Source of the DNA: Eledone cirrhosa
Taxonomy: Eukaryota
Reading direction: 5' to 3'
NCBI GenBank assembly: GCA_964016885.1
Contig: OZ024740.1
Location: 297,662,001 to 297,726,000 of the forward strand
DNA: 64,000 nt
Shown here: in pieces, positions 47,458 through 64,000 of the stretch
How the letters are laid out: each line of letters begins with the position of its first letter
Position numbering within the stretch: position 1 is the stretch's first letter
Made by a program: the position numbers and the translations under genes
Notes under the pieces: generated by a model
What the model was told of the DNA's origin: nothing
Databases searched by the model: none
The model's input: the letters and a program-made list of their open reading frames with translations, nothing else

Positions 47458-48341
47458 CGAGATGTATCAGAAAAGTTCAAGGACTATGTCACAAAAGATT
47501 TATTTCAAACCCAAACATCACACTAAGAGTTTTCTCCTTCAAAGTAATCCCCCTGGAGTATGTAACTGTAATCTTAGCTCTCTGCAGCGATCAAACTTTT
47601 TTCTTCATAATTTTATATACATGTCCTCTGTTTCAGGTCGTCGAGCAATGAGCACAGAGCAACGAACAAACTTAAAGTTTCTGGTACGGTTAGGGAAAAC
47701 TCCGTCAGAAGCACTGGGATTGCTGCAGCAAGTGTATGGAGATGAGACGATGTCACGCTCACGTGTTTTTGAGTGGTGCAAGATGCCCCCAGGAGCGAAA
47801 GGCCCTCAACAACCAGGACTGAGGTCAACGTTGATCGCGTCAGGCAGATGGTGCGTAGCCATCGTCGGCTGACTGTTGGACTGATGGCAAATGAGCTGGG
47901 CATGAATCGGGACAGCGTCTGGAAGATTCTCACTGAAGATTTGGACATGCGGAAAGTTTGCGCGAAGATGGTGCCAAAACTGCTGAACGATGACCAGAAG
48001 GGTGGACGCATGCAAGTGTGCCAGGACATCCTCGAGCGTCTTGAATCAGAACCAGACTTGCTAGAGACAGTCATCATCGGTGATGACTCATGGATCTTCG
48101 AGTACGACCCGCAGGGGACCCGTTTTGAAGACGTGGACGACATCAAAAAGGCCGTGACGACGGAACTGCGGAGGATCCCGGAAGAATCCTTCCAGGAGAG
48201 CATGCAAGCGTGGCAGAAAAGGATGGAAGAGTGCATTAGACTAAAGGGGGATTACTTTGAAGGAGAAAACTCCTCGTGTGAAGTTTGGGTTTGAAATAAA
48301 TCTTTTGTGACATCAGTCCTGGAACTTTTCTGACACACCTC

Positions 48342-55589: not shown

Positions 55590-55896
55590 ATATTTCAGAG
55601 CAACAATTCTAATTTTTAATTTCTGCTTGACCGGCAACCGCTCTGTATAATCAGTTCCTGATTATTTACTAGAATTCTATAAGAACCAAAACATCCAGGT
55701 TTTCAGCAAATGGGAGGAGTAGTTGGCTTTGATAAGCATCAATAAATGCAGAAACAAGGCCTTGTCAGCTTTATCTGCCCCTGTTTGCTGAAATTAAAGT
55801 GAGTCTGTCACTACTCTAAAACAATAGCATAAGGTCTTCAAAATGCTTTTTATTAAGCATACAGTGTATTGCAAAATACACTGTATATACATTCAT
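55590..55896 (+). mobile_element. Diverged solo monomer of the 310-bp family with HHR at 55725-55770
   Basis: Shares tatttcagagca, ccggcaaccgctct, ttctataag, aggtcttcaaaatg; ggct-TTGATAA-gcat caataa atgca-GAAA-caaggccttg-TC-agct. Confidence 0.8.
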
Positions 55897-55983
55897 ATAT
55901 ATATATATATAGAAGTAGTCGTCCCATAGACTCGTCCCATAGACTGAGTGCTCTTCTACTACAGATATAACCCTCCAGGGTTC

Positions 55984-56557: not shown

Positions 56558-57075
56558 TTGGTTAGAGCACTGGGCTTGCAATCGGGAGGTTGTGAGTTCG
56601 ATTCACCGAACAGGTGATGTGTTGTGTCCTAGAACACGGCACTTCAGTTTACTCAGCTGTAGAAATGAGTTGCAACGTGACTGGTGCCAAGATGTATTGA
56701 CCATTGCGTTTCCTTTCGACAATATCGGTGGCGTGGAGAGGGGAGGTTGGTATGCATGGGCGTTTCAACGTATTACTTTTAGTAATTAGTTAGGCAGATC
56801 GGAATTAAAGAATTTAATTGTATCTATTAATGATTTCTAACATTAGCTCAAGGTTAGATATTTGCACAGGAGGAGTTTAATTAATTACATAAGAATTCCT
56901 GACATTGTCCATGGAGTAATCAAAATAAATTTCTGCTCGAAAGAGTTTGAACTCAGAAGATAAAAATTCTAAAGAAAATATTAAGTGATAATTAAATAAC
57001 CACCCGTCTACCTACTAAAACTAAAACCGACCCGTGTCTTTTTGTGTTTATATTGGCAACAATGGATCTCCCAAA

Positions 57076-63189: not shown

Positions 63190-64000
63190 TTTCACATTGG
63201 CTCATAATTTTTGCTATCGTCCAGTCATCTTTGTTGCAGTCGTCCAACCCATGCATAAGTGCACCGCTGTTTTCTTTTCAATTCGGAGAAGTAGTAGCTC
63301 TACTTTCTGACCTCCGAGCTACGCACTCTAATCCCGATTCGGCCTCTTGTATTCGCGATCGTATTCTTTCGTTCATTACTTAAGATTCATGACCATAGGT
63401 AATGGTTGGCACGAATACCAAATTAAAGTTAGTGAGTTTGACTTTTACGCCTACCTCACTTCTTCTGATTACCGAATGCTGAAACTGGTGAATTACTGCA
63501 CCAGCTCCTGTCATTTTTGCACTTAATTTAGCCTCCCGCCTTCCATCACTCGTGAACACGAGATACTTGAACTTCTCTACCTGTTTCAGTAGAATTCCAT
63601 TCACGTGTAGAGTGCACTGCGCAGGCTTCCTTGAGAAGACGAGTGTCTCAGTTGTCGCAGCACTGATTTTCATTCCATCCATGCAGCACTCGGCATCAAA
63701 CCTATCAAGTTTAAGTCGGAGATCACCTTCTGTTGATATAAGTAATACCATGTCGTCAGAAAATTCCAGCCGACTGATTCTATACCTGCCAGTCGTGATA
63801 CCACTTCCAACCCGGCTGCGCATGTCAATCCTGTTCATGAAAATAATGAACGGGGGAGGTAACAGTACGCACCCTTGGCGAAGTCCAACTCCCACATTGA
63901 ACGGTCTCGATTTAGCACCATTTATCTGAACACAATTACTCGAGCATTTGTATATAGACATCACGGCAGCAAGAAGCTGACCATCGATCCCATACTCCTG
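63190..64000 (-). pseudogene. RTE-like LINE reverse transcriptase fragment
   Basis: GVGLRQGCVL, LEFSDD, QVEKFKYL, VPTITYGHES. Confidence 0.85.

Follow-up and report, generated by a model that had tools for sequence, protein, structure and literature searches.

A probable retrozyme copy with a U3:A8 hammerhead core between TA-rich tracts of the Eledone cirrhosa genome

The window analysed here is a 64,000-nucleotide stretch of contig OZ024740.1 of the Eledone cirrhosa assembly GCA_964016885.1 (positions 297,662,001 to 297,726,000 of the forward strand; coordinates below are those of the window unless a locus is named). At 18221-35037 the sequence is a TA-rich tract of great length in which short inserts recur, and a LINE-like fragment within it, at about 24.7-26.1 kb, recurs at 36.6-37.8 kb. 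By eye, a tRNA-derived SINE-like start can be recognised at 56560-56700 (plus strand), adjoining a (TA)n tract. At 1083-4402 (minus strand), 43309-43830 (plus), 47773-48294 (plus) and 63492-63929 lie what we take to be LINE-like (endonuclease, zinc knuckle), restriction-like endonuclease end, mariner-type transposase and RT fragments, and 4989-5471 (minus strand) presumably represents a calcium-binding EGF-like exon, suggesting an intronic location for the region inside a host gene. The features relevant to the present study are the following.

8629..11577, both strands: two-armed array of the related 310-bp family, whose core is C3:G8; the minus-strand arm has 3.9 units and the plus-strand arm 5.7
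55590..55896, plus strand: probable retrozyme unit of the U3:A8 clade, extra-A subfamily; a single arm without inverted partner and without tail
55591..55660, plus strand: conserved 5' flank, shared with the 310-bp array family, containing the second fixed end point and a 16-mer
about 55613, within the 5' flank 55591..55660, plus strand: second fixed end point, …TTCTAAT
55701..55793, plus strand: ribozyme domain, with the closing outer helix at 55701-55710/55784-55793
55725..55770, plus strand: type I hammerhead motif with three helices, GAA and GUC site
55725-55728/55767-55770, plus strand: stem I, GGCU/AGCU
55725..55761, plus strand: predicted alternative helix, 55725-55731 with 55755-55761, pairing U3, U4 and G5
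55729..55735, plus strand: core UUGAUAA, with U3 at 55729 and A8 at 55734
55736-55739/55746-55749, plus strand: stem II, GCAU/AUGC
55750, plus strand: extra A between C11.1 and G12, diagnostic of a sub-lineage
55751-55753, plus strand: GAA (GAAA starts at 55751)
55754..55765, plus strand: 12-nt perfect palindrome ACAAGGCCUUGU, a 4-bp stem III in the monomer and a 12-bp duplex in a double hammerhead
55766, plus strand: GUC site, predicted cut after C17
55824..55896, plus strand: conserved 3' flank, shared with the array family, including a hairpin (55860-55885)
55896-55911, plus strand: first fixed end point, the end of the 3' flank, running into (TA)n

The 307-nt unit at 55590-55896 lies between TA-rich tracts and, relative to the full unit of its subfamily (about 320 nt), is missing the 'GC' where units join and 4 nt that follow the outer helix. 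The outer helix, stems I-III, core and GUC site listed by the first-pass annotation are all present at the positions it gave. Its hammerhead has the YUGANRA and GAAA motifs, an NUH site, three helices with stem I open and a Watson-Crick 3:8 pair, as expected of type I, and departs from that type by one extra A before G12, which the first-pass annotation had overlooked. Like animal retrozymes, the unit is non-coding (without a long ORF) and low in G+C, and carries one type I hammerhead. The Rfam hammerhead models gave no match for it, either at the gathering score or up to E = 10, and they also miss the canonical 310-bp family; thus, the models do not cover these variants. In the genome (3.0 Gb), a search with the unit returned 2,162 first-look candidates, of which 40 were scored and 30 loci fetched; at least 30 loci are 95-100% identical to the unit, and the copies aligned from the fetched loci have the identical core and extra A, except for single private changes. 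The window copy differs from the subfamily majority by 3 substitutions and one 4-nt deletion, all outside stems I-III and the core, and is thus close to the consensus rather than the diverged solo monomer it had been taken for.

The flanks connect the unit with the array at 8629-11577, whose 3' ends both face outward into (TA)n, with a tail of about 30 nt on the left end only. As had been claimed, the flanks are homologous to the 310-bp unit (84% identity over 70 nt, E 1e-16; a second match of 83% over 48 nt, E 7e-7), and the array junction reads as quoted at the time. The assertion that the ribozyme domains have the same architecture in a different sequence needs to be narrowed: both are hammerheads and the domains barely align, but the array ribozyme has a 6-bp stem I, a U-U at the base of stem II, a 6-nt palindrome and a GUA site. 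Comparison of the two domains therefore offers no covariation, for which the evidence sits inside the clade of the solo unit itself. A 16-mer common to the 5' flank of this unit and the array family has 18,504 matches in the genome, and loci drawn from its pattern list contain sister subfamilies that have U3:A8 and lack the extra A, plus one with C3:G8. A genome pattern search found no C3:G8 version of the exact subfamily of the solo unit, yielding two chance matches and one control match. At locus L073 (3186-3500), a deep-branching C3:G8 unit with a 9-nt stem III region, 24-28% divergent from the U3:A8 groups, adjoins a 310-bp array.

A pattern of the core left open at positions 3, 7 and 8 has 2,912 matches in the genome and none for the reversed control. 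C3 is present in 385 of them and U3G8 in 30, leaving 2,497 with U3A8. Given that 8 of the first 100 C3 matches listed are C3A8, about 354 are C3G8, and unpaired 3:8 combinations amount to about 2%, which matches what mutation of inserted copies would be expected to produce (0.8% per A/T site and 2% per G/C site, the G/C sites mutating 2.4 times faster). A FastTree tree of 155 full-length units, with the 310-bp array family as root, places the C3:G8 lineages at its base and unites the U3:A8 copies in one group (support 0.97). The C3:G8 to U3:A8 swap is thus a single event and the copy number reflects inheritance, so the count does not provide independent support. Nevertheless, fixation in 2,497 matches bears out the proposal that U3:A8 is compensatory rather than decay, and the pair is not confined to one copy, a prospect that the first-pass annotation had raised against itself; decay of a single copy is rejected. 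What does not hold is the surprise attached to the pair: natural U3-A8 covariation, with in vitro activity cited, is already described by Perreault et al. 2011 (PMC3088659) in their section on core variation.

Paired changes that followed the swap were analysed in 111 U3:A8-clade copies from 69 sites. Inherited changes on both sides were found at six pairs (II.2, II.4, III.4, III.5, I.1 and outer 9), with G-U intermediates at II.4, III.4, III.5 and I.1. Pairing is kept by 7 of 9 inherited states and by 11 of 50 private states (Fisher p = 0.002, with inherited states defined as those seen at four or more sites, pairs fixed by the search pattern excluded, thresholds of our own choosing, and a further 15 states, found at 2-3 sites each, left aside, 5 of which pair while 10 do not); both non-pairing inherited states are at the terminal outer pair. 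When each site is represented by one row (60 distinct rows), pairing is found in 96% of cells, compared with 35-48% for slid controls, in shuffling that ignores relatedness, and both sides change at 16 of 29 pairs. The unpaired core letters U4, G5, A6, A9, G12, A13, A14 and C17 are invariant in all subfamilies, whereas their neighbours change. Accordingly, the covariation anticipated earlier is found, by pair counts and tree, for helices I-III within the family. Among 32 copies of the solo's own subfamily, however, there is no excess conservation of the core (2 changes seen, 4.35 expected; P = 0.19) or of the stems (10 changes seen, 10.0 expected). From the paired changes after the swap and the lack of excess conservation among copies, as read from the sequences, we place selection on the fold in the source lineages and not detectably on the genomic copies. 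The claim that the structure is under selection hence stands for the former, with their six double-changed pairs, and fails for the latter; the window's copy has not kept its fold through a compensatory change of its own but inherited it, and is a passive product that needs no selection of its own.

A survey of 107 non-overlapping loci, including 85 insertions of the U3:A8 clade and 13 of the 310-bp family, revealed a recurrent footprint. Back-to-back inverted pairs with 3' ends outward account for 60 of the 85 U3:A8-clade insertions, and 82 of the 85 contact (TA)n, which, along with the 2,912 core matches, agrees with the suggested dispersed mobile family. Among the two-armed loci that could be classified, 35 of 37 have a tail on exactly one end: one end is at the TA run of the unit and the other carries a tail of about 30 nt ending near TTCTAAT, as in the window array. 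The notion that the unit's ends lie at a short TA run is therefore correct for one end, the second fixed end being about 30 nt into the next unit. The family consists of many dispersed copies including head-to-tail tandems, mostly short, as is typical of animal retrozymes. Arms of at least 2.5 units occur in 4 of the 85 U3:A8-clade insertions, compared with 5 of 13 for the 310-bp family, whose stretches were sized to hold arrays; because such arms are few, rolling round a circle is weakly shown for the U3:A8 clade. Locus L150 (1400-6600) contains a 17-unit U3:A8-clade array whose units have diverged and follow a higher-order pattern, in contrast to 310-bp family arrays, which are near-identical; judging from its sequence, it looks like a later segmental expansion.

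The genome contains 10,596 GIY-YIG candidates; in all four candidate ORFs tested a reverse transcriptase (RT) was found, and in three also a C-terminal Pfam GIY-YIG hit. One Penelope-like family has a two-point end pattern like that of the unit, with a TTCTAAT+(TA)n end, and a U3:A8 hammerhead unrelated to that of the unit (the exact motif matches 6,441 times, with U3A8 in every one of the first 100 listed; a minor variant with one T fewer has 83 matches), which is an independent origin of the 3:8 swap. This autonomous family, with a minimal hammerhead, is present at L199 (2452 and 7431, minus strand), L200, L204, L208, L210 and L218, and has a 938-aa open frame with RT, a C-terminal GIY-YIG domain and a Cys-rich linker. 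In 50 of about 10,600 GIY-YIG candidate loci, no homology of the unit to a Penelope pLTR was found beyond the shared TTCTAAT end. A third U3:A8 hammerhead family, with a U-U at the stem II base, lies downstream of a GIY-YIG match and ends in (TA)n (L193:2204, plus strand). Further C3:G8 hammerhead repeats adjoin (TA)n at L201, L204, L208, L211, L209 (7067 and 7578), L178 and L206; one family among them resembles the 310-bp unit in its stem II and has a stem III region that is long and not palindromic, and another is in a tandem of about 510 bp.

Folding predictions point to a difference between single and tandem units. For the solo unit and all 8 U3:A8 groups, the predicted minimum-energy fold of the monomer is not the hammerhead: the 5' strand of stem I, together with U3-U4-G5, is engaged by the 5' half of the palindrome in an alternative 7-bp helix (probability at least 0.95), and in all 8 groups the hammerhead is 2.9-7.0 kcal/mol above the minimum, in calculations that exclude tertiary contacts, penalise three-way junctions and treat groups that are not independent. 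The predicted gap is 0.5-0.7 kcal/mol in the two C3:G8 sister groups. Replacing the core of the solo unit by C3:G8 in silico leaves a gap of 5.2 kcal/mol; thus, U3 is not needed for the misfolding of the monomer. When two copies are folded unconstrained, the predicted minimum is a double hammerhead, 6-12 kcal/mol below two monomers, and for two real tandem pairs the predicted fold contains the 12-bp palindrome duplex and one complete core. In the alternative helix, 94.5% of cells pair and both sides change at 4 of 7 pairs; a comparable run of 6-7 bp is formed by only 4-8 of 256 perfect palindromes, among which the U3:A8 groups rank 3-67 by energy gap. Two inherited states break the helix, G-A in 11 sites and A-C in 7, and the changes along it are all transitions, often keeping a G-U pair. 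From these models, dimer-dependent cleavage appears likely and an evolved off-switch is a lead. An explanation of the short arms of the U3:A8 clade by cleavage of monomers is not supported by the folding and survives as part of the rival considered below.

We consider it likely that the unit is a copy of an animal retrozyme targeted to (TA)n, whose U3:A8 pair is fixed throughout a clade numbering about 2,500 copies, and that the motif remained active in the source lineages, where it would have cut tandem transcripts for copying by Penelope-like enzymes. By analogy with published retrozymes (PMC7229834), tandem loci would be transcribed, the transcripts cut between two ribozymes into units, the units ligated into circles and the circles reverse-transcribed over more than one unit length, with a borrowed Penelope-like RT-endonuclease copying the units into (TA)n. 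According to the folding predictions, a single unit would prefer the inactive helix and two units would join in a double hammerhead by way of the 12-bp palindrome, which would confine cleavage to multimers. It could instead be argued that the U3:A8 ribozyme is dead throughout the clade, and that AT-biased drift is combined with selection acting only on the stability of an RNA rod or on enzyme binding. C-to-U and G-to-A are indeed the commonest changes, with the faster mutation of G/C sites noted above, and the monomer is predicted to fold away from the hammerhead. Yet, drift of this kind sits poorly with the invariance of the eight unpaired core letters across subfamilies, with unpaired 3:8 forms staying near 2% and with the published activity of U3:A8, and we regard a clade-wide dead ribozyme as very improbable. 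A much more serious alternative, which we think possible although we are inclined to doubt it, accepts an active ribozyme but lets it work as an ordinary monomer with a 4-bp stem III, the alternative helix being a by-product, without any role, of the similarity between core and stem III. This would accommodate the transitions that often retain G-U pairs anyway, the two inherited states that break the helix, the unexceptional energy-gap ranks and the tertiary loop contacts that lie outside the folding energies, and short arms agree with circles that re-cleave. On the other hand, the palindrome stayed perfect while two of its pairs changed on both sides, although at pair III.5 the tetraloop of a monomer would have no need of this, few palindromes give a run of this length, and pairing of the alternative helix is maintained with more than half of its pairs changed on both sides. 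As for the fullest version of dimer-dependent cleavage, in which the conserved 6-7-bp helix would lock the monomer or circle, the palindrome would enable cleavage of multimers, the swap would have opened palindrome changes with the helix kept, and the extra A would be tolerated, we hold it only tentatively and find it rather doubtful as a whole. If true, the subfamily series would be a record of a ribozyme and its off-switch evolving via G-U intermediates.

The extra A raises a related question, namely, whether its bearers are crippled passengers of an otherwise active clade, the insertion weakening or killing cleavage and the copies spreading through read-through or partner-cleaved transcripts. 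The insertion at 55750 adjoins G12, which is the general base of the hammerhead according to the portion of PMC6155905 consulted, and Perreault et al. 2011 (PMC3088659), in their section on core variation, list insertions after A6 and A13, and none before G12; a non-exhaustive search of literature texts found no report of a tolerated insertion before G12. The extra A is present in 241 of the 2,912 core matches, that is, 8%, yet its lineage accounts for 11 of the 30 U3G8 matches, and a U3G8 haplotype with the extra A recurs in tandem and inverted copies at two loci (L119 and L165). A wobble-core template seems, from these sequences, to have been transposed there, and the U3G8 enrichment together with the recurring haplotype could mean relaxed selection in this lineage. 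An arm of 2 full units was seen in none of the 27 best-hit loci, and in the FastTree tree GCC copies without the A nest, with weak support, after copies with it, as if the A had been lost again. These points speak for a crippled passenger. Against it, the extra A occurs in three sequence backgrounds; pair I.1 is found as U-A and as C-G, plus two U-G intermediates, among the first 100 listed of the 241 matches; the ends of the outer helix are compensated; the rest of the core is invariant in 44 copies chosen independently of the core; and the lineage has been amplified recently. On balance, a crippled sub-lineage appears unlikely.

The U3:A8 pair itself is already known, and the retrozyme family described here belongs to a known kind. 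Literature on the U3-A8 pair was limited, among the records listed, to Cervera and de la Peña 2014 and one other paper. A literature search combining hammerhead, Penelope and cephalopod terms listed no description of the present family, although supplements may list further U3-A8 retrozymes, and nothing relevant on C3U/G8A rescue was found in the literature search. As far as covered by our excerpt of Cervera and de la Peña 2014 (PMC4209133), about 1,300 U3-A8 motifs are known from the Penelope-like (Cercyon) elements of Schistosoma mansoni; the clade described here similarly combines this compensatory pair with high copy number in an animal retroelement. The Schistosoma motifs are, however, minimal hammerheads in the repeats of coding elements, whereas here a non-coding unit has 4-bp stems II and III and, unlike in that case, a subfamily series can be resolved before and after the swap. 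This dense natural series, with C3:G8 ancestors, one swap and about ten subfamilies with stepwise paired changes, offers ready constructs for measuring the cost of U3:A8, of an insertion before G12 and of a competing helix in a natural hammerhead. Descriptors limited to C3:G8 miss thousands of such motifs, 2,497 in this clade and 6,441 in the Penelope-like repeat.

With animal non-LTR retrozymes, as portrayed in the sections considered of Cervera and de la Peña 2020 (PMC7229834) and 10.64898/2026.07.22.740005, the clade shares an AT-rich unit that is non-coding, measures 170-400 nt and bears a single type I hammerhead, the occurrence of monomers, dimers and multimers, and co-existence with Penelope-like elements. 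Solo monomers are normal and retrozymes are linked to Penelope repeats in what we have of Li, Clavereau and Pollet 2026 (10.64898/2026.07.22.740005), and dimer-dependent cleavage is reported for axolotl retrozyme families in the parts used of these two animal retrozyme papers (PMC7229834; 10.64898/2026.07.22.740005); the U-U at the stem II base of HHR_Amex2, as it appears there, is also found in the 310-bp family. To the retrozymes described in those sections, the present clade adds the U3:A8 core, the 12-nt palindrome, the extra A before G12 and a predominance of inverted insertions of 1-2 units in (TA)n. The main text of PMC7229834 contains none of the terms 'inverted', 'microsatellite' and 'U3-A8'. 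Expression and circles were observed for the retrozymes of that study in the sections cited. For the unit described here, a look-up of sequencing runs listed three runs of one study that contain the stretch, and no RNA run. Partial tandems, an inverted 5'-truncated copy, a tail of 30-40 bp at one end and a bias towards microsatellites are shared with EN+ Penelope-like elements, as reported in the portion considered of Craig et al. 2021 (10.1101/2021.04.23.441226), from which the unit differs in having neither an ORF nor, in 50 loci, homology to Penelope repeats. Whether dimer-only cleavage lets retrozyme circles avoid self-cutting is a question that the series allows one to ask, and the closest precedents are the newt satellite and avocado sunblotch viroid, which, in the passages drawn on from PMC6155905 and PMC4209133, share a palindromic stem III through which two ribozymes make one active dimer and monomers are spared. 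In the newt and viroid RNAs described there, the monomer fails because its stem III is too short, whereas in the present clade a 4-bp stem III is possible and it is a competing helix that is predicted to block the monomer.
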